From Candidatus Krumholzibacteriia bacterium (GTDB lineage Bacteria; Krumholzibacteriota; Krumholzibacteriia; LZORAL124-64-63): a DNA stretch of 54,644 nucleotides. The stretch lies in contig JAUVII010000005.1 of NCBI GenBank assembly GCA_030592845.1, positions 1 to 54,644 of the forward strand. The letters are read 5' to 3'. Of this stretch, positions 5,683 through 27,553 are shown in pieces (position 1 is the first letter of the stretch; every line of letters starts with the position of its first letter). The notes beneath the pieces were generated by a model. That model was not told where the DNA came from, did not search any database, and saw nothing but the letters and a program-made list of their open reading frames with translations. Made by a program: the position numbers and the translations under genes.

Positions 5683-5746
5683 TAGTTTTGATTATTTGAA
5701 CGAGAATCCGAGGTCAACCCCGGATTCTCACACCAAAAGTCAAAAC

Positions 5747-6685
5747 CTACCAGCCTTCTATATAGTAATAATCGAACTCTGAAAGCACGGTCTTGGTGAA
5801 CCCCCAGGCCTCGTTGTAGCTCAGGCCGCTGTCGTCGGGGATGACGATCTTGATGTAGAGCTCTTCGCCCAACCGATCTTTCAGGGCGCCCAGCCGTTTG
5901 AACATTTCGATGCGGGTAATCTCTTCCCACTGGTCGGCGTTGATCCCCTTGAACAGATATTGGAACTGCCCGTTATCCCGGCGGTATTGCACCGAGGCCA
6001 CCTGCTTGCCCATCGAACTGCGGGCGGGTCGCACCAGTTTGAGATATTTGTCTTCCAGGGACGAAAAATCCTGCCGCTGCCGGGCGAGAGCCATTTCCAT
6101 ATCGCCTTTTTCGTCGCTCAAGGTTAGCAGGGTGGCCTCGTTTTTTTCCAACTGGCTCAAGAGGTCCGCGATCTGCAGACTCAGTTCGCGGTTGGCCCGT
6201 TCGGCTTCGTCCCGAATGCCGCCGATCATGGCCTGGGCGCCTTCCAGCTCTTCTTCTTTTTCACTGAGCTGCATCCGGATGAGGCGGATGTTTTCCTCGA
6301 GTTCCCTGTTTTCACCTTCCAGCCGGGCGATGGCCGCGGCCTTGATGTCGCGGCTGGCCTCAAGGCGCTGCGCCTCGTCCGTCAGCAGGATGATTTCCAT
6401 GCGCGAACTGCGGATCGCCTCTTCGAGGTCGGTGTTGCGCACCCGCAGATCGGCCAGCACCTGGGTGTTGGAGGCGAGGTGGTGTTCGGCCTCGGCCTGC
6501 AGCTGTCGGCTCAGGCGGATCTGGTCGATGAGGTCGGCGTTCTTGATGATCACCACGACCATCGTCAGCATAAACACCATCAAAATGACGGTCATGATGT
6601 CGGTGAACGAGGGCCAGAGCGAGGTGTCGTTCGAGGACGACGACCGGTTGAGCCTCAAGTCGGGATAGCCGCGAAAATTGTGCAC
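5747..6685 (-). CDS. MotB/ZorB-like single-TM subunit with long coiled coil and ExbD-like C-terminal domain
   Basis: 'SLWPSFTDIMTVILMVFML' TM with the conserved Asp, heptad-rich stretch of ~170 aa, C-terminal 'YIKIVIPDDSGLSYNEAW'. No OmpA-like motif seen. Confidence 0.75.
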   Translation of the reverse strand: MHNFRGYPDLRLNRSSSSNDTSLWPSFTDIMTVILMVFMLTMVVVIIKNADLIDQIRLSRQLQAEAEHHLASNTQVLADLRVRNTDLEEAIRSSRMEIILLTDEAQRLEASRDIKAAAIARLEGENRELEENIRLIRMQLSEKEEELEGAQAMIGGIRDEAERANRELSLQIADLLSQLEKNEATLLTLSDEKGDMEMALARQRQDFSSLEDKYLKLVRPARSSMGKQVASVQYRRDNGQFQYLFKGINADQWEEITRIEMFKRLGALKDRLGEELYIKIVIPDDSGLSYNEAWGFTKTVLSEFDYYYIEGW

Positions 6686-6701
6686 AGGTCGCCTCCTTTC
6701 T

Positions 6702-7658
6702 TTACCGGTTCAGCCTGAATCCTTCGATCAAAACGTTGCGCAATTCGGCCAATCCGGCCAGGGACTCGTCCATTTTGTCGTTTTGGGTTTCCTGCCGGGC
6801 GATCATCTCGTTGCCCTGTTCCTGCCGGGCCCGGGCGGTGTCATCGATGCGATCCACCGCGCCTTCGATGCCGCCGAGACCCTGGCGCATTTCCGTGACC
6901 AAGGCGCGAACATCTTCGACAAGCAGTTTGGCCTGATGGTTGATGGTCTCGGTTTCGTAAGCGAAATCGGGGACCATGTACAACAGCGACGCGCGTTCCA
7001 GGCGGCTGATGACCCAGGTCTGCAGGTCGGTGAACCTGTGGAAAAAATAGGTGAAGAAGAAGTAGCAGACGATGGCCGTGGCCGTGGTGGTCAGGGCGGT
7101 GTTCATGCCCAGCAGCATCAGGCCCATGCCGGAGCCGGGAACGGCAGTCTGCAGCACGTCGGTCGCGCCGATCAGTGCAAAGATCAGCGAACTGACGGTG
7201 CCGAACACGCCGGTCAGGATCAGCACGTTGTTCACGAAGCGGGGAAACGAAAGATGCAGTGATTCGCCCGCCAGCATGATGGCTGAAATCGCGCCGTGGT
7301 CCACCGGGCCGCCGCCTTCGAACAGTTCCTTGATGGTGGCGTGGCGTTCGCGCAGCAAAGAGGGCTGATCGAATTCGGTCAGTACCTGATCAGTGGGGTA
7401 GCCCTCGGCGCGGCGGGCCATGAACTCGGTGATCTGGGCTTCCTGGCGTTCGTAGTGACGGACGCCGCGGAACAATTGCCAGACTCCCAGGGCAAACAGA
7501 ACCAGGATGACCCCATTAAGAATCAACGGCCGCGGATCGCCGAACAGAACGGCGGCCACCGCATCGATCTTCCACAGGAAAATCAGAACGGCCGTAATTA
7601 CTGCGGCCGCGAGTACGACTATCATCTGGATAAGGATTTGCCGGCTGCGTGGCGCCAT
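6702..7658 (-). CDS. MotA/TolQ/ExbB proton channel family protein
   Basis: Four hydrophobic segments with 'LILTGVFGTVSSLIFAL' and 'GMNTALTTTATAI' motifs; short coiled-coil tail. Confidence 0.85.
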   Translation of the reverse strand: MAPRSRQILIQMIVVLAAAVITAVLIFLWKIDAVAAVLFGDPRPLILNGVILVLFALGVWQLFRGVRHYERQEAQITEFMARRAEGYPTDQVLTEFDQPSLLRERHATIKELFEGGGPVDHGAISAIMLAGESLHLSFPRFVNNVLILTGVFGTVSSLIFALIGATDVLQTAVPGSGMGLMLLGMNTALTTTATAIVCYFFFTYFFHRFTDLQTWVISRLERASLLYMVPDFAYETETINHQAKLLVEDVRALVTEMRQGLGGIEGAVDRIDDTARARQEQGNEMIARQETQNDKMDESLAGLAELRNVLIEGFRLNR

Positions 7659-22748: not shown

Positions 22749-23057
22749 TTACTGTTTGGGGTCGCGAACCCTGAAAAGGAGAAGGTTCCGAACAAGGCCG
22801 CCGATAAATAAAACCACCGGGAAAACCGTCAGCGAATATAGCCCGGATATGACGGGCCACCAGGCTCGGTCGGGACCCGCAGACATGTCCTGGTAAACTT
22901 TGAGCGTCAACAGACCACACAGCAGAAGGCCAAATATCAGAACTGACAAGTTGAAATAAATAATTCGCCGTTGTTTGTCCCGCTTTGGTGAGAAGCGGAA
23001 AAAGGCCCATAGCATCAGCACTGATATCGGTACCAGAACCAGTAGTGCGAGAATCAT
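22749..23057 (-). CDS. Small 3-TM membrane protein (cassette-like)
   Basis: MILALLVLVPI... with three hydrophobic segments; starts just after an attC-like site. Confidence 0.75.
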   Translation of the reverse strand: MILALLVLVPISVLMLWAFFRFSPKRDKQRRIIYFNLSVLIFGLLLCGLLTLKVYQDMSAGPDRAWWPVISGLYSLTVFPVVLFIGGLVRNLLLFRVRDPKQ

Positions 23058-23071
23058 CCCTTTCCAGCTCC

Positions 23072-23169
23072 CTCTGTCGTTGGGTTCATCTGCAAGGGCG
23101 GTTGGCGCGGACTTGGCGCAAGCCAGGTGCGTGCCAAGCGGCTTTGTCTGATTCAAGCTCCTGTTCGCG
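23072..23169 (-). repeat. Degenerate attC-like site 1 (98 bp)
   Basis: Starts CGCGAAC 3 nt after the trmO stop; internal dyad; 53/63 identical to the site at 23661; R' core mutated (GACAGAG). Confidence 0.7.
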
Positions 23170-23172
23170 AGC

Positions 23173-23646
23173 TTAAATGAAACGACCATCAGATCGTCTA
23201 TCTGGCGCCTTCTTTTTCGCTTGATCAAGCCAGCCAGTGCGGATTTCTTCTTGAGGATCGAATTCCGGCACATACGGCTTGATGTCGAGTAGTGGTGTGC
23301 CATCCAGTATGTCTACGCCATCGATGTGAAGAACCCTGCCCTCGATCCTCTCGAGTCGTACGACCGAAAGGCCGATAGGATTGGGCCGCTTGGGTGCACG
23401 GGTGGCAAAGACACCTCGCATCGTATTATCCATGAACGGAACCACTCTCAACTTGAATCCGAGACTGCGGTGGAACAGATACAACAGGATTATGTGCGAG
23501 AAACCAACAAGGTCCTGCAATCCGTCCGCGTAGTCTGCGAGTACTTCGACCGATCCCTTGATGCCCGAAGCACCCGTTGGTTGGATCGGCATACCTTCCA
23601 TGTTGGTGAAAGGGCTGTGAATCGTACCGATCGGTGTGAACTTCAT
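23173..23646 (-). CDS. trmO: tRNA (N6-threonylcarbamoyladenosine37-N6)-methyltransferase
   Basis: 'PIGTIHSPF...PIQP', 'GVFATRAPKRPNPIGLS', 'DILDGTPLLDIKPY'. Confidence 0.93.
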   Translation of the reverse strand: MKFTPIGTIHSPFTNMEGMPIQPTGASGIKGSVEVLADYADGLQDLVGFSHIILLYLFHRSLGFKLRVVPFMDNTMRGVFATRAPKRPNPIGLSVVRLERIEGRVLHIDGVDILDGTPLLDIKPYVPEFDPQEEIRTGWLDQAKKKAPDRRSDGRFI

Positions 23647-23660
23647 ACTGTCCCCAGTCT

Positions 23661-23758
23661 CGTGAACGTTGGCTTCATCTGCAAAGTCGGTTGGCGCGGA
23701 CCTGGTGTCAGCCAGGTGTGTGACAGGCGCAATTATCAGGTTCAACTATTTGATAGAT
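23661..23758 (-). repeat. Degenerate attC-like site 2 (98 bp)
   Basis: Minus strand ATCTATC-aaatagTTGAACCTGA...TGCAGATGAAgccaac-GTTCACG, with a central cctgg/ccagg dyad. Confidence 0.72.
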
Positions 23759-23778
23759 TTCACCTCACACAGTGAATA

Positions 23779-24969
23779 CTACATTAAATGCCGAAAATAA
23801 TGCTTCATGTTGGCATCGTATTTCATGGCAAATTTATACATCCACTGCCAACGCATCAATCTTCTGCCCAGCAATGAAGGATGATTGGTCATTGCTTCTT
23901 CGAAATTCTCCCCATTAAAAATGTCTGCATACAACGTGCAACCCTCAAATTCTCGAATTGGCTTCAAGAATATGTACCCATCACAAATTGTCGCAAGAGT
24001 GAAATCAGGATAGCCCAAGCAATACCCAGACTCTCCACCCGGCAAATCACCAAAAGGCGTCTCGTGCGTATCGAAGCCCACAGGTGTATTCCCTAGCGAT
24101 TCCATAACTCGATCAATGGCGCCACCAACCGGATATGTGAATTTTGTTGATGCTAAGCTTTCCCAAGGCGAGTGCAACAGAAGAGTAAATGATTGTTCGC
24201 CGACTTTATCATGCAACAGATTTCCCAGGCGCTGCGGATTCTTTCCGAGCAGCTTCTTGTTTTTGCTGTCATATACAGGTTGGTGAAATTTAGTAAATGA
24301 GTGATTTCGCCCGCAATAAATCAGGGCTTTTTCATTGGGCGTCACGAATTCCTTTATGGCCACCGCCGCCATGAAGGGATCCGGCTCACCCCGGTACCAT
24401 ACAGACTGCCACAACTCAGGAGACATGTTGTCCTGGAGAACTGTCAAATTTGGGCGATATCCGAGACCAACAATTCGAAACTTTGGATCATCTGGATCCA
24501 AGGAGGAATTCAATTCCCAGGCAGCTCGATAAAGGTCCATATATTCAACGTAGCACCAGTACATTTTATAGCGGAACACCAGGCTACGAACCGCCTCTTC
24601 ATCATATTCTTGTGCTGTCACAATTGAATCAGCCTCTGACTGCAATTCGTAAGATCCAAACTCAATCCCAAGATTGTGGATTCCTGCTTTATACAGTCGT
24701 GGAATTAAGCCCTGCACAAAAATTACATCGTGTTTAACGCGGTGATATTCTCCCAGAATTACTATGTTGTGGTCTTCAAATTTTTCCAGGAGATAGTCCT
24801 CCGGCGACTCTCCTTCGGAAGCAATATAATGACTGAGAGCCGACTGGAGATTTTCGGACAATGAAGGAATAGGCTCCTTCATAACCCAGCTGTAGACTAG
24901 AGGTGCCATTGAAAAGAACAGAACCAGCACTCCCCAGGCCCACTTTTTTGTGCGTTTATCCCAAACCAC
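23779..24969 (-). CDS. EreA/ChaN-like (erythromycin esterase superfamily) membrane-anchored protein; lower GC
   Basis: 'IVILGEYH', 'LGIEF', 'IYCGRNH', 'CDGYIFL'; N-terminal TM. Confidence 0.65.
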   Translation of the reverse strand: MVWDKRTKKWAWGVLVLFFSMAPLVYSWVMKEPIPSLSENLQSALSHYIASEGESPEDYLLEKFEDHNIVILGEYHRVKHDVIFVQGLIPRLYKAGIHNLGIEFGSYELQSEADSIVTAQEYDEEAVRSLVFRYKMYWCYVEYMDLYRAAWELNSSLDPDDPKFRIVGLGYRPNLTVLQDNMSPELWQSVWYRGEPDPFMAAVAIKEFVTPNEKALIYCGRNHSFTKFHQPVYDSKNKKLLGKNPQRLGNLLHDKVGEQSFTLLLHSPWESLASTKFTYPVGGAIDRVMESLGNTPVGFDTHETPFGDLPGGESGYCLGYPDFTLATICDGYIFLKPIREFEGCTLYADIFNGENFEEAMTNHPSLLGRRLMRWQWMYKFAMKYDANMKHYFRHLM

Positions 24970-25002
24970 TAATCCCCTGCCCTTTTTCGAAGCGCCACGT
25001 AA

Positions 25003-25075
25003 AGCTAACGTGAATTACCCATACCCACCTATCGGATTATACGGCAAAAGTATGGGCATAAACAAAACGTCTTTG
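25003..25075 (-). repeat. attC-like site 3 (~73 bp)
   Basis: Ends cacGTTAGCT on minus; arms cccatac/gtatggg; R'' degenerate. Confidence 0.55.
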
Positions 25076-25144
25076 ATATCCATTCTTTTACAGGGATATC
25101 CAACCCGAAAAACCCGGACAAATTCTTCCTCGTCATCAGGACAT

Positions 25145-25235
25145 TTCTAACGTGAAGATTGGGTTGTGCGATGGTTCCAGGTGCGCTGGGATAAAAAATA
25201 TCATTGCGAAAATCGCCCCCAGGGGCACGTTTGAA
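25145..25235 (-). repeat. attC-like site 4 (~91 bp)
   Basis: Minus strand TTCAAACgtg...cacGTTAGAA; outer arms 10/11 complementary. Confidence 0.6.
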
Positions 25236-25400
25236 AAGACAATCTATTGATAATAAGTAAGTTAAAAATTGGAGCTTCAAACTGGAGCCTCTGTTATGTC
25301 GTTGATCCCTACGGTAGAATTGCCGGTGCGGCATGGAATCTGCTATCCCGAAACGAGCCCAAACAGCAGATTGAGCCAATTCCAAGGGATAAAACGAACC

Positions 25401-26495
25401 ATGTCTCGAATCCTCAAATTGTTATGCCTGTCCTGCTGCCTGCTGGCGGCTTCCTGCGGCCCTAAAGAAGCCGAAGTGGGCTGGGAATCGGTGGAATTGG
25501 GTACTGACGCCGAGTTTCGTGACGTCTTTTTCCTCGATTCCCAAAACGGCTGGATTGTGGGCAAAGGTGGTGTGGGGATCACCGGGGGCATCATCGGTCG
25601 CACCCGCGACGGGGGTGGGACCTGGACCTACCGCAGCGGCCTGATCGGGAAACGTCCCCGTACCAGATCGGTCGATTTGAACGCCGTTGTATTCGTCGAT
25701 ACGCTGCGGGGCTGCATCGCCGCGGGGGCGGGGACCATGATCACCACCACCGATGGCGGCGAGACCTGGGACAGGATTCCCCCGACGGGCCCGGTTTACG
25801 CGCAAAACAAGGACATCGATTTTGTGGATGATCGTAACGGATGGGTTATCGGCCGGCAGGGAGTACTCCGCACCGACGATGGCGGCGACAGCTGGAGGCG
25901 CGTCGACGAGGAGGAAAAAATGACAGGTGACGCTCTTGATTTCCTGGATCTTGAGCACGGTTGGGTGGTTGGGAAATTCGGTGCCGCCCACCGCACTGAA
26001 GACGGCGGAGTGACCTGGGAAAAAGTGGAGGCATGGGGAGATCTGGAAGGTCTCAGCGGAGACGAAATGCCCAAATTCACCTCGGTCCACTTCAGCGATG
26101 AAAACCACGGCTGGATTGCGGGCTACATTCGTGAATTCCCCGGTTTTGAACAGCACGATTGGGGGGTCATCATTCACACGTCGGACGGTGGCCGGACCTG
26201 GGAACATCAGCTGGACGGTGTCGAATCTCTTTTGAAGTCCATCAGGTTCGAAAACAACCGGCGCGGCTGGGCGGTCGGCTACAACGTCAACGACGGGACC
26301 GCACAAATTTTGGCGACCGAAAACGGCGGCGGGTCCTGGGAGATCCAGACAACAATCCATGGGGAAGAACTGCTGGCTTTGTTTGAACGAGACGGACAGG
26401 TATGGGCCGTGGGCGACAGGGTCAGGGAAAAGCCCCAGAGAATGTTCAGGCTAATCCCCGCCCTCGGTGTCGGGAAGTCCGGCGAGGTCCAGTGA
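25401..26495 (+). CDS. YCF48-related (BNR-repeat beta-propeller) lipoprotein
   Basis: Lipobox AASC; repeated 'F.D...GW.VG..G.I..T.DGG.TW'. Confidence 0.9.
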   Translation: MSRILKLLCLSCCLLAASCGPKEAEVGWESVELGTDAEFRDVFFLDSQNGWIVGKGGVGITGGIIGRTRDGGGTWTYRSGLIGKRPRTRSVDLNAVVFVDTLRGCIAAGAGTMITTTDGGETWDRIPPTGPVYAQNKDIDFVDDRNGWVIGRQGVLRTDDGGDSWRRVDEEEKMTGDALDFLDLEHGWVVGKFGAAHRTEDGGVTWEKVEAWGDLEGLSGDEMPKFTSVHFSDENHGWIAGYIREFPGFEQHDWGVIIHTSDGGRTWEHQLDGVESLLKSIRFENNRRGWAVGYNVNDGTAQILATENGGGSWEIQTTIHGEELLALFERDGQVWAVGDRVREKPQRMFRLIPALGVGKSGEVQ

Positions 26496-26966
26496 GTCGG
26501 TGAAGGCGAGTGAGGTCTTCAGGCCCTCGAATACGGCGTCCATCAACTCGAATTGGCCCTGCGCCATGTAGAGGGCCAGCAACGATTTTTCATTCATCAC
26601 GAATACGTATCGTTTGCGGTACTGGTGGCTGAGATGGTCCCAGGTATCGACTGCCCGGGCCGGTCTGCCGCTCACCTGGAAACTGTCGCGTGAGGCGGTT
26701 TCGCGCCGCCCGTCTTCCCGCAATTGGACCAGGGCCCGCTCGATGGCTTTGTCGATATTCCAGCCCATCCTGCCCATGTCTTCCACCGCAATGCGCTCGA
26801 AGTCCTTGCGGAACTGGTGCTTTTCGCCGGAGTCGAAATGTTCCCAGTCCGGCGGAACCATCAGGGATACGGCATGGGTCCCGACCTGGATTCGGGTCGG
26901 TTCCGGCTGGTCGCAGGCCGCCGTCAGGCTCAGGGTCAAAAAAAGCAGCCAGACCACGCGTCGCAT
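26451..26966 (-). CDS. Hypothetical lipoprotein (possible PsbP/DcrB-like fold)
   Basis: Lipobox TAAC; 'VSLMVPPDW', 'VSGRPA', 'FEGLKTSLAF'. Confidence 0.65.
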   Translation of the reverse strand: MRRVVWLLFLTLSLTAACDQPEPTRIQVGTHAVSLMVPPDWEHFDSGEKHQFRKDFERIAVEDMGRMGWNIDKAIERALVQLREDGRRETASRDSFQVSGRPARAVDTWDHLSHQYRKRYVFVMNEKSLLALYMAQGQFELMDAVFEGLKTSLAFTDSLDLAGLPDTEGGD

Positions 26967-27553
26967 CAGTGATCCTCCGCCGGTTGGAAGGTAACCGTTT
27001 CCACGACCCGCTCGAACAGGGGCAGGTTCACGGGCAGGCCCAAAAAGGCCGCTTCGAAAAGGTGGTCTTTTTTCAGGAAGTAATACTCGCGTCCGACCAG
27101 CGACCGTTCCGGCATGTTCAAGGTGAAGTCCAGACGGTAGGCCGGCATGCCGGCGATGGTATCGGGCACCATGGCATGCACGACGAAGCTGTCGACGGGA
27201 ACCGGCCAGCCCTCCGTGGATAACCTGGTTTCCTTAACCACATCATCGAGGGTGAAGGGTCCGCGGTGGCCCCTTTTGAGGCTCCGTTCGCCGACCTTGT
27301 AATACTCCGCAATATAAATGCGTTCCCCGACTGATCCCTTGTGGGTGAACCAGACGCCACGCAACCCGCCCTGGTTGTGCTTTTGACGTTCCCATTGGGC
27401 GGGCGGGGGCTGGAAGGTCAGGGGTATGACGCACCAGTTGAAGGTTTCCGCCGCAAGAAGGGGTTCCTTGAGGGCTTTCTTTTCCTGGGAATCACAGGCA
27501 AGAAAAACCGTCAGGATAATAAACAAGAACCAGACGCCGCGTGAACGACTCAA
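26966..27553 (-). CDS. Hypothetical lipoprotein (possible PsbP/DcrB-like fold)
   Basis: Lipobox FLAC; 'FQPPPAQW', 'IAGMPAYR', 'FERVVETVTF'. Confidence 0.65.
   Translation of the reverse strand: MSRSRGVWFLFIILTVFLACDSQEKKALKEPLLAAETFNWCVIPLTFQPPPAQWERQKHNQGGLRGVWFTHKGSVGERIYIAEYYKVGERSLKRGHRGPFTLDDVVKETRLSTEGWPVPVDSFVVHAMVPDTIAGMPAYRLDFTLNMPERSLVGREYYFLKKDHLFEAAFLGLPVNLPLFERVVETVTFQPAEDH

Follow-up and report, generated by a model that had tools for sequence, protein, structure and literature searches.

What kind of system, if any, is encoded by a lone pair of adjacent genes, denoted here A and B, in a 54,644-nucleotide stretch of DNA from Candidatus Krumholzibacteriia bacterium (contig JAUVII010000005.1 of the GenBank assembly GCA_030592845.1, positions 1 to 54,644; hereinafter, the window)? 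Gene A (6702-7658, minus strand, ATG start) encodes a protein of 318 amino acids (aa), and gene B (5747-6685, minus strand, GTG start) a protein of 312 aa, the putative axle subunit; both genes were delineated from the open reading frames (ORFs) and their translations. A previous interpretation of this DNA made without database searches (hereinafter, the sequence-only reading) took the two genes for an orphan ion-driven motor pair of an uncharacterized class. Ion-driven motors with the 5:2 stoichiometry power flagella, nutrient import, envelope integrity, gliding and phage defence, and each of the earlier 5:2 architectures disclosed a new use of rotation. By fold, by the aspartate-bearing helix and by gene order, the A-B pair belongs to the MotAB/ExbBD/TolQR/ZorAB superfamily, and we read it as a previously undescribed family within this superfamily. 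The general picture that we consider reasonably probable is a one-piece transducer, in which B would combine an axle of the TolR/ExbD type with a reach of the TolA/TonB type, and the head of B would be the working end that acts on a partner encoded elsewhere. Throughout, statements on gene linkage refer to the best 80 loci of the family, the 4189 ORFs of which were clustered all-against-all.

Domain architecture of the two subunits

Subunit A contains four membrane helices predicted by hydrophobicity (residues about 8-30, 44-63, 141-165 and 179-206), and a cytoplasmic insert of some 75 aa; the last membrane helix is followed by about 110 residues, which, according to hydrophobicity and an AlphaFold2 (AF2) model, form a helical tail. 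The two most conserved membrane helices (residues 139-206; 7041-7244, minus strand) carry the motifs GVFGT (150-154) and MNTALTTT (185-192). GVFGT and TALTTT (187-192) are near-invariant in 30 close relatives and in 77 members of the family from several phyla; the G-x-F-G-T and T-A-L-x-T-T signatures, which the sequence-only reading had singled out as channel motifs, lie in the most conserved blocks of the protein, and we infer that these helices line the pore. The C-terminal part (residues 237-318; 6705-6950, minus strand) is a cytoplasmic helix that spans residues 237-313 in the AF2 model, with predicted local distance difference test (pLDDT) values of 54-77, and ends in a family-wide G-F-R-L motif (313-316), which reaches 95% conservation or more across 77 sequences from several phyla.

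Structural comparison identifies A as a MotA/ExbB-like subunit, in line with the sequence-only reading. A Foldseek search started with the AF2 model (30 homologues, pLDDT 74.5) retrieves ExbB, TolQ, PomA and ZorA with probabilities of 0.96-1.00, and in a VIA search rows 1-23 are all ExbB, TolQ or ZorA chains, with Z values of 10.9-12.9. The best match is ExbB (5sv0_F, Z 12.9, root-mean-square deviation (rmsd) 4.5 Å, 205 aligned residues), followed by, e.g., TolQ (8vlw_B, Z 12.1), ZorA (8qyy_A, Z 11.6) and MotA (6ysl_F, Z 9.3); MotA and PomA chains, with Z values of 8.3-9.3, score below ExbB, TolQ and ZorA. These values are too close to assign A to a particular branch. Given that the alignments with ExbB, TolQ and ZorA start only at residues 23-41 of the model, the first hydrophobic helix of A (residues 4-29) appears to be an extra element; only the MotA alignments cover it (model range from residues 12-15). 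Taken together, the model-based matches indicate that A is predicted to adopt the ExbB/TolQ/ZorA/MotA fold despite a sub-threshold Pfam score, on which more below. A profile search of the PDB with A yields coiled-coil noise on the tail only (best E value 0.12), and a genome-wide search with the MotA_ExbB profile (PF01618) matches seven other genes, A of the window not being among them.

The four predicted membrane helices, the coverage of the first of them by the MotA alignments and the presence in the same genome of a FliG_C domain match with 139 bits are all compatible with an alternative flagellar stator. This interpretation is nevertheless very improbable: the MotA and PomA chains reach Z values of 8.3-9.3 only, compared to 11-12.9 for ExbB, TolQ and ZorA; B lacks the OmpA-like wall-binding domain that MotB has along with its plug; and there are no flagellar genes beside the pair in any locus.

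Subunit B starts with a conserved cytoplasmic N-terminus that contains the family-wide motif D9-L-R11; next come a membrane helix that bears the aspartate and a coiled-coil stalk, and the protein ends in a TolR-like head (AF2 model with 25 homologues, pLDDT 78.7). The membrane helix (residues 24-47, WPSFTDIMTVILMVFMLTMVVVII; 6545-6616, minus strand) begins with WPSFTD (24-29), found in exactly this form in 133 of the 150 best cluster representatives (see below), and Asp29 is invariant both in close relatives and across phyla, as anticipated in the sequence-only reading. The PADLOC profile ZorB1 matches residues 14-80 with the E value of 3.7e-7, and a PDB profile search detects ZorB-type chains over residues 14-72 (8vvn_B with the E value of 7.4e-4, 8vvi_A and 8qyd_F). 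Judging from these sequence matches, the membrane helix of B is closest to the N-termini of ZorB among defence profiles and solved structures. In P0364, a long member of the family, the ExbD/TolR profile (PF02472) scores 24.3 bits against the cut-off of 25.4, on the membrane helix only. B also resembles NF006543, the family of PRK09039-type “peptidoglycan-binding proteins”, with residues 14-192, which comprise the membrane helix and the coiled coil, aligned to positions 7-174 of the 350-position profile at the E value of 1.4e-7; however, the score is 31.7 bits compared to a cut-off of 305 bits, the match ends before the head, and B lacks a wall-binding domain. In agreement with the absence of a peptidoglycan anchor noted previously, Pfam detects no OmpA-like domain in B at E ≤ 1.

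The head (residues 219-312; 5750-6031, minus strand) has a TolR/ExbD-like topology according to the AF2 model and VIA. Its secondary structure is beta-beta-beta-alpha-beta-alpha (residues 228-303 of the AF2 model), and it includes the family-wide motifs RPA (219-221), GK (226-227), LY (276-277), SGLSYNEAW (286-294) and DYY (305-307). A VIA search started with the model of B ranks the periplasmic domain of TolR (2jwk) first among 48,161 chains (rmsd 2.3 Å), with 74 of the 74 residues aligned onto residues 226-306 of the model; Escherichia coli TolR (5by4) comes at rank 8 (Z 8.1, rmsd 3.2 Å, 88 aligned residues), and the other top rows are long coiled coils aligned on the stalk. These results suggest that the periplasmic domain of B has the TolR/ExbD fold, as predicted by modelling.

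The A-B pair thus combines features of several known systems. The TolQ-TolR and ExbB-ExbD pairs are similar to it in that the predicted fold of A is nearest to ExbB and TolQ, B couples an N-terminal aspartate helix to a head with the topology of TolR, and gene A precedes gene B. The differences are equally distinct: a coiled coil of about 170 residues separates the helix and the head of B, whereas the TolR/ExbD proteins of the same genome are 135-180 aa long, as called; A has an additional N-terminal membrane helix and an additional C-terminal helix compared to ExbB and TolQ; there is no Pfam ExbD match to B, and MotA_ExbB is below the threshold on A; and genes for TolA/TonB, TolB and Pal are not linked to the pair.

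The similarity to Zorya (PDB entries 8qyd, 8vvn and 8vvi), in which the predicted fold of A and its C-terminal helical extension also have counterparts, leads to a different functional interpretation. A Zorya-like envelope sensor would have its head anchored to the wall or an outer layer, its A ring would turn, and the output would be cytoplasmic, passing through the C-terminal GFRL helices of A to effectors encoded elsewhere, for instance in phage defence or stress signalling. The proximity of the membrane helix of B to ZorB in defence profiles and solved structures, the C-terminal helix that extends A by about 80 residues beyond the ExbB-like core and ends in the conserved GFRL, and the family-wide conservation of D9-L-R11 in the cytoplasmic N-terminus of B are all compatible with this possibility, as is a patchy distribution within lineages. 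However, PADLOC assigns no families to A or to three distant relatives of A, with no match to a ZorA profile. The ZorA tail is about 500 residues (70 nm) long, and ZorB carries a wall-binding domain fused without a linker, according to the Zorya paper (PMC11946911), compared to some 80-110 residues in the tail of A, which is consistent with the earlier remark that A lacks the very long ZorA tail; a search for proteins of 558-2000 aa that would be extended, ZorA-like versions of A gave no match, which is weak evidence. In the A-B pair, the long element is on B and would be periplasmic, and the head is TolR-like rather than OmpA-like, without a peptidoglycan-binding domain. Together with the genomic context described below, these differences make a Zorya-like sensor unlikely.

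The predicted coiled-coil stalk

The stalk of B (residues 48-218; 6032-6544, minus strand) comprises about 171 residues. In the AF2 model, it is part of a single unbroken helix (residues 27-215) with pLDDT of 84-95 over residues 31-190 and 79 over residues 191-200, and the hydrophobic periodicity of residues 50-215 peaks at exactly 3.5 residues. With the textbook coiled-coil rise of 0.148 nm per residue, the length of the stalk is about 25 nm. The prediction of a dimer of B gives a median score of 0.49 (three runs), whereas the highest score among three controls is 0.00; at least 95% of the contacts are common to the runs, with pLDDT of at least 78 for the partner chain, and the confident contacts between the two chains are in register from residue 24 to residue 218 (e.g., 119-119 and 122-122). 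In the calibration of this tool, the mark was reached by 20 of the 30 solved homodimers and by one of the 23 proteins solved as single chains, counts that are only roughly applicable here given that a custom alignment was used for B. These predictions support, without showing, that two chains of B run in parallel in a coiled coil; the stretch of about 170 aa and 25 nm posited for it in the sequence-only reading is borne out by the helix, the period and the in-register dimer prediction. The periplasmic location of the stalk would follow, by homology, from the N-in topology.

Stalk length was further compared across the family as the spacing between the Asp of WPSFTD and the RPARS motif that marks the base of the head, in the 127 of the 150 best representatives that contain both motifs (the other 23 were left out). 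The spacing varies between 123 and 484 residues, with the mode at 193 (24 representatives), and is 190 in the window. This variation is far from uniform: relative to the 190 of the window, the spacing modulo 7 falls into class 3 in 91 representatives and into class 0 in 19, with 17 in the other five classes (n = 127), and 40 of the 52 distinct spacings belong to these two classes (chi-square p = 4.6e-12, a value that overstates independence because the representatives are related). Among the close homologues with both motifs (n = 113), the spacing is 190 in 109, 158 in three, which have a deletion of 32 residues, and 183, i.e., one heptad shorter than 190, in one. A sub-lineage of close relatives (P0104, P0107 and P0108, with 280 aa, and L048) has a clean deletion of this size in the stalk, corresponding to query residues 125-156. 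This deletion shifts the spacing from the class of the window into that of most family members. The heptad-class spacing is what is predicted for a continuous coiled coil between two fixed elements and thus points to the stalk being a rigid structural unit. By itself, the heptad-quantised length cannot separate the transmission of torque from mere reach.

A rotating shaft of the GldLM kind has to be considered here. In such an arrangement, A would be held still, and the coiled coil of B would spin and turn an outer-membrane apparatus for gliding or secretion. According to a review of 5:2 motors (PMC9389320), GldM is an 18-nm shaft, in which the dimer of the inner subunit is extended as a long periplasmic structure and the axle carries the output, and the inner membrane is separated from TonB-dependent receptors by more than about 20 nm; B is similarly an inner subunit with a long dimeric periplasmic extension, as predicted. 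The near-fixed length of the stalk in the lineage of the window is also compatible with this model. However, the GldM shaft consists of four globular domains and the stalk of B is a predicted coiled coil; GldLM is encoded in large gliding and secretion operons and the A-B pair stands alone, with no GldK/N-, secretion- or gliding-type genes linked to it in the 80 loci and no gliding or type IX secretion genes among the neighbours scanned with Pfam. Furthermore, the four-fold variation of the stalk is hard to fit with meshing to a fixed outer ring, and nothing is known that would keep A still. No sequence match to GldL or GldM was seen, and chains of the two are not listed among the Foldseek and VIA fold matches, a weak negative given that absence from the list does not exclude the fold. 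Overall, we regard a GldLM-like shaft as improbable.

Distribution and a proposed mode of action

The family is widespread. A word-based search at E ≤ 0.001 identifies 1042 proteins for B and 290 for A; among the matches listed, none has a Pfam domain, and the informatively named sources are all Krumholzibacteria. The existence of hundreds of full-length homologues of both proteins implies that neither ORF is a product of chance. When 1.84 billion cluster representatives are searched exhaustively with HMMER, 510 members are found at E ≤ 0.001, 421 at E ≤ 1e-10 and 240 at E ≤ 1e-30; the best 150 of these are 148-604 aa long, and 145 of them contain the N-terminal helix as well as the head. In a species-level scan (one genome for each species), the alignment of B gives at least 599 pattern matches, and at least 546 genomes encode a relative of B. 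Hence the designation of the pair as an orphan holds for the lack of linked partner genes and fails for its distribution, given the number of species in which the family is present. The best 80 loci are from Krumholzibacteriia, Desulfobacterales and relatives, Desulfuromonadales/Geobacteraceae, Zetaproteobacteria (including the cultured Mariprofundus ferrooxydans PV-1) and many sulfur-oxidising Gammaproteobacteria. In the phylum of the window, B matches 21 of the 201 genomes, including that of the window itself, and eight of the 125 sampled genomes that are at least 90% complete; with the window's own genome excluded, the B match is present in 19 of the 86 sampled genomes of its own family and in nine of the 80 genera of the sampled phylum. 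In the class of Mariprofundus PV-1, 40 of the 101 sampled genomes carry B. This distribution fits an accessory function, though many of the genomes are incomplete. One locus with a typical A-B pair (L118) is titled “uncultured Halobacteria archaeon”; the other labelled carriers are bacterial, one of them only as “uncultured bacterium”, and the contig in question is probably mis-binned or mislabelled.

The two genes are tightly linked to each other and to nothing else. The A profile matches an ORF in all 80 loci, and B is whole in 77 of these, always directly downstream of A on the same strand, the other three being cut by contig ends; A also directly precedes B in 10 of 10 loci from the phylum of the window. 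No real, i.e., non-overlapping, third gene family occurs in more than 16 of the 80 loci. Clusters present in 52, 43 and 28 loci consist of shadow ORFs opposite A or B and were rejected as conserved partners. The neighbours are lineage-specific genes of the housekeeping type: rpsF, rpsR, rplI and dnaB in Mariprofundus PV-1; YaaA, chalcone-isomerase-like, MeaB, lactate dehydrogenase and PPK2 genes in other Krumholzibacteriia; and HemN, 2OG-Fe(II) oxygenase, MlaC-like, TerB and RNase D genes in Gammaproteobacteria. The commonest real neighbour is the gene resembling 2OG-Fe(II) oxygenases, which is present in 16 loci, all of them from Gammaproteobacteria. In the window, the pair is flanked by genes for an ABC-2 transporter, a DUF6311 protein and Fe-S proteins, as identified by Pfam, and no flagellar, TonB/TolA or Zor-type gene is adjacent; likewise, no TonB_C or TolA-like gene was detected among the Pfam-scanned neighbours. 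The statement of the sequence-only reading that no known partner is adjacent thus applies to the window and to the 80 related loci alike. Elsewhere, the genome of the window encodes seven MotA_ExbB, seven ExbD and eight TonB_C matches, the latter on other contigs and several of them beside canonical ExbBD genes, as well as the FliG homologue mentioned above. The A-B pair is therefore additional to, rather than a replacement of, the canonical Ton/Tol and flagellar systems.

The genomic context also bears on the Zorya-like sensor. Neither Zor effectors (ZorC, ZorD, ZorE or ZorF/G genes) nor a defence-island flavour is apparent in the window or in the 80 loci, and PADLOC analysis of 13 neighbouring ORFs gives no Zor match, only generic ABC-ATPase and P-loop hits; the N-terminus of ZorB, matched by B, is the only Zorya element recognized. 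The neighbours are, instead, ribosomal, replication and respiration genes. With B as the tblastn query, neither 72,556 plasmid records nor 50,697 phage records gave a match, and a mobile-element interpretation was dropped for this reason.

The tight linkage is equally relevant to the possibility that A-B is not a motor but a structural element of the envelope, such as a strut or spacer, or else an ion channel under regulation, with a stator-like core retained only as an anchor. In its rigidity and periplasmic length, the coiled coil is reminiscent of molecular rulers, A is under the Pfam cut-off, and no energy-consuming partner is visible. Yet the invariant Asp, the Thr/Asn-rich helices of A and the membrane core in general are the most conserved parts of both proteins across phyla, which argues that ion coupling is under selection, and a mere anchor would have no use for a five-fold channel subunit whose gene is always next to that for B, as observed in 77 of the 80 loci, those in which B is whole. 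Accordingly, we consider a non-motor role quite improbable.

The stalk that would reach past the wall, the conserved head and the lack of any other genetically linked component make the one-piece transducer the favoured explanation. In this scheme, five A subunits would be arranged as a ring in the membrane, with the membrane helices of two B subunits paired in its centre, and ions would pass via Asp29 in B and the conserved helices of A that are rich in Thr/Asn, driving the rotation of A5 and B2 relative to each other. Beyond the membrane, the B dimer would be a rigid two-stranded coiled coil, in register and about 25 nm long, roughly the width of the periplasm. The distance from the inner membrane to the wall in E. 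coli is about 9 nm, as given in an excerpt from PMC11946911; given this distance and that of the TonB-dependent receptors in the cited part of PMC9389320, a 25-nm stalk would pass the wall and reach the region of the outer membrane. There, at or just under the outer membrane or at the outer face of the wall, the TolR-like head with its invariant surface motifs might engage a partner encoded elsewhere in the genome, and the turnover of the motor would do mechanical work on this partner, in envelope maintenance or transport. The assignment of the head as the working end and the role in the envelope are our suggestions from architecture and context.

Several observations weigh against this explanation. 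The 5:2 stoichiometry, the ion flow and the rotation are attributed to the pair by analogy. The match of A to MotA_ExbB has an E value of 0.01 and 16.0 bits compared to the gathering cut-off of 22.9 (residues 142-215, which include most of the two conserved membrane helices), and among four distant relatives of A, three also score below this cut-off (22.0, 22.3 and 18.4 bits), the fourth being above it (23.8 bits). The likeness of the head to TolR depends on a predicted model, and the Z value of 8.8 for 2jwk is only slightly above the background of 7-8 stated for VIA. Pfam finds no match of ExbD/TolR (PF02472) to B at E ≤ 1, hhalign comparison of 14 heads with the seven ExbD/TolR proteins of the window's genome yields a probability of 0.2%, and a Foldseek search with the whole model of B retrieves nothing at E ≤ 0.001, TolR not being listed (the best rows are YqgF and integrase-like cores, with E values of 0.05-0.2). 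A search of the ESM Atlas with residues 216-312 similarly gave no usable match. Given these null results, the ExbD/TolR-like character of the small domain, as originally proposed, stands with respect to predicted structure and context, and falls with respect to detectable sequence similarity. As for the stalk, coiled coils pass dimer predictions easily, and the B dimer prediction contains no confident contacts between the heads. The longest stalks, at 484 residues, would extend to about 70 nm and cannot stand upright in the periplasm, so that spanning the periplasm is not the whole rule. Finally, the distribution within lineages is patchy (e.g., 19 of 86 genomes, nine of 80 genera and 40 of 101 genomes in the samples above).

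A more specific version of the one-piece transducer can be put forward tentatively. A-B might represent a third route for proton-motive energy across the Gram-negative envelope, in which the axle dimer itself would be the shaft of about 25 nm that turns or pulls an outer-membrane target via the TolR-like head, with no TonB/TolA arm, and evolution of the stalk by whole heptads would keep the head and the motor in phase. The closest published idea is the computational prediction of axle proteins that combine a trans-pore helix (TPH) with a vWA domain and are encoded beside a lone tolQ-like gene (PMC12204202). There, as proposed here, the trans-pore helix bears an aspartate and continues directly into a periplasmic working domain, replacing TolR/ExbD, force transduction by turning inside the pentamer is proposed, and the axle genes are paired only with a TolQ-like gene. 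Unlike the TPH-vWA genes, which mostly form heterologous pairs, B is a single gene with a predicted homodimeric product and a long canonical coiled coil, and its head is TolR-like, with no vWA domain detected by Pfam. A full-text literature search, the scope of which did not extend to the supplements of PMC12204202 and PMC12505986, found no account of an Asp helix, a coiled coil and a TolR-like head in one protein, which agrees with the view of A-B as an uncharacterized class. An mBio survey of MotAB relatives refers to non-flagellar homologues “with unknown function”, and the word “coiled” is absent from its main text. The NCBI label of both A and B of Mariprofundus PV-1 (WP_009851500 and WP_009851501) is “hypothetical protein”, and some A records are labelled “MotA/TolQ/ExbB proton channel family protein”.

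Long extensions have been described in other ion-driven 5:2 motors, namely the shaft of GldM (PMC9389320) and the tail of ZorA (PMC11946911), in the portions of these reports cited above. The novelty of the A-B family is that the long element is on the axle and in the periplasm, as predicted, and that linked partner genes are not needed. If the proposed scheme is true, a motor can deliver force across the envelope without a TonB/TolA arm. The system is tractable: it has only two genes, Asp29 is an obvious candidate site for an inactivating point mutation, there is a natural series of stalks with spacings of 123-484 residues, and at least one carrier, Mariprofundus ferrooxydans PV-1, is in culture. 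Definition of the family would also correct the annotation in hundreds of genomes.

The operon and its surroundings

The organization of the locus agrees with the two-gene operon with a 16-bp gap described in the sequence-only reading. The TAA stop codon of A (6704-6702, minus strand) is followed by a spacer of 16 nucleotides (nt) (6686-6701, minus strand) that contains a ribosome-binding site, AGGAGG (6697-6692, minus strand), located 6 nt 5′ of the GTG of B. Past the stop codon of B, between it and the end of the convergent ABC-2 permease gene, which belongs to the ABC-2 transporter operon, there is a hairpin (5702-5729, unstranded) with perfect 9-bp stems, GAGAATCCG and CGGATTCTC, and a 10-nt loop. 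This hairpin lacks a clear T run and is absent from the consensus scan listing; it looks like a two-way terminator. Upstream of A, the gene for the DUF6311 membrane protein (713 aa) is divergent from A. Thus, the signals in the spacer, the 3′ hairpin, the convergent ABC-2 operon and the divergent DUF6311 gene together delimit a stand-alone two-gene operon. As for expression, the look-up for RNA listed no holder, and a 203-nt contig from a cold-seep metatranscriptome aligns to positions 6752-6953, in the 3′ part of A, with seven differences; it may be DNA carry-over or come from a relative and is not counted as evidence of expression.

Some features of the neighbourhoods in other genomes deserve mention in their own right. 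The 2OG-Fe(II)-oxygenase-like gene encodes a protein of about 180 aa and lies on the same strand directly upstream of A, at about 760 bp, in 16 of the 39 gammaproteobacterial or unassigned loci (L075, L079, L081, L082, L084, L086 and 10 others). It is part of a longer conserved block with the genes for DsbD_2, a sigma-54 activator, DUF2244 and HemN, followed by A and B and then by the MlaC-like, TerB and RNase D genes. An ABC-F type ATPase (two ABC_tran domains and ABC_tran_CTD) is encoded near B in Mariprofundus PV-1 and in two genera of Krumholzibacteriia (L088, 8948-10903; L032, 9732-11525; L037, 3970-5586), one to few genes away (within three in L037), which may be a coincidence.

In the remainder of the window, one single ORF and one run of ORFs lack Pfam matches. 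The former, on the plus strand (509-2044), encodes 511 aa, is located upstream of the operon for the ABC-2 transporter and is not matched by PADLOC either. The latter consists of six consecutive minus-strand ORFs of 118-396 aa (22749-27553) that come right after the gene for a DEAD-box helicase; this run is located in the part of the window with the lowest GC content (0.50 at 24001-26000 compared to about 0.59 elsewhere).

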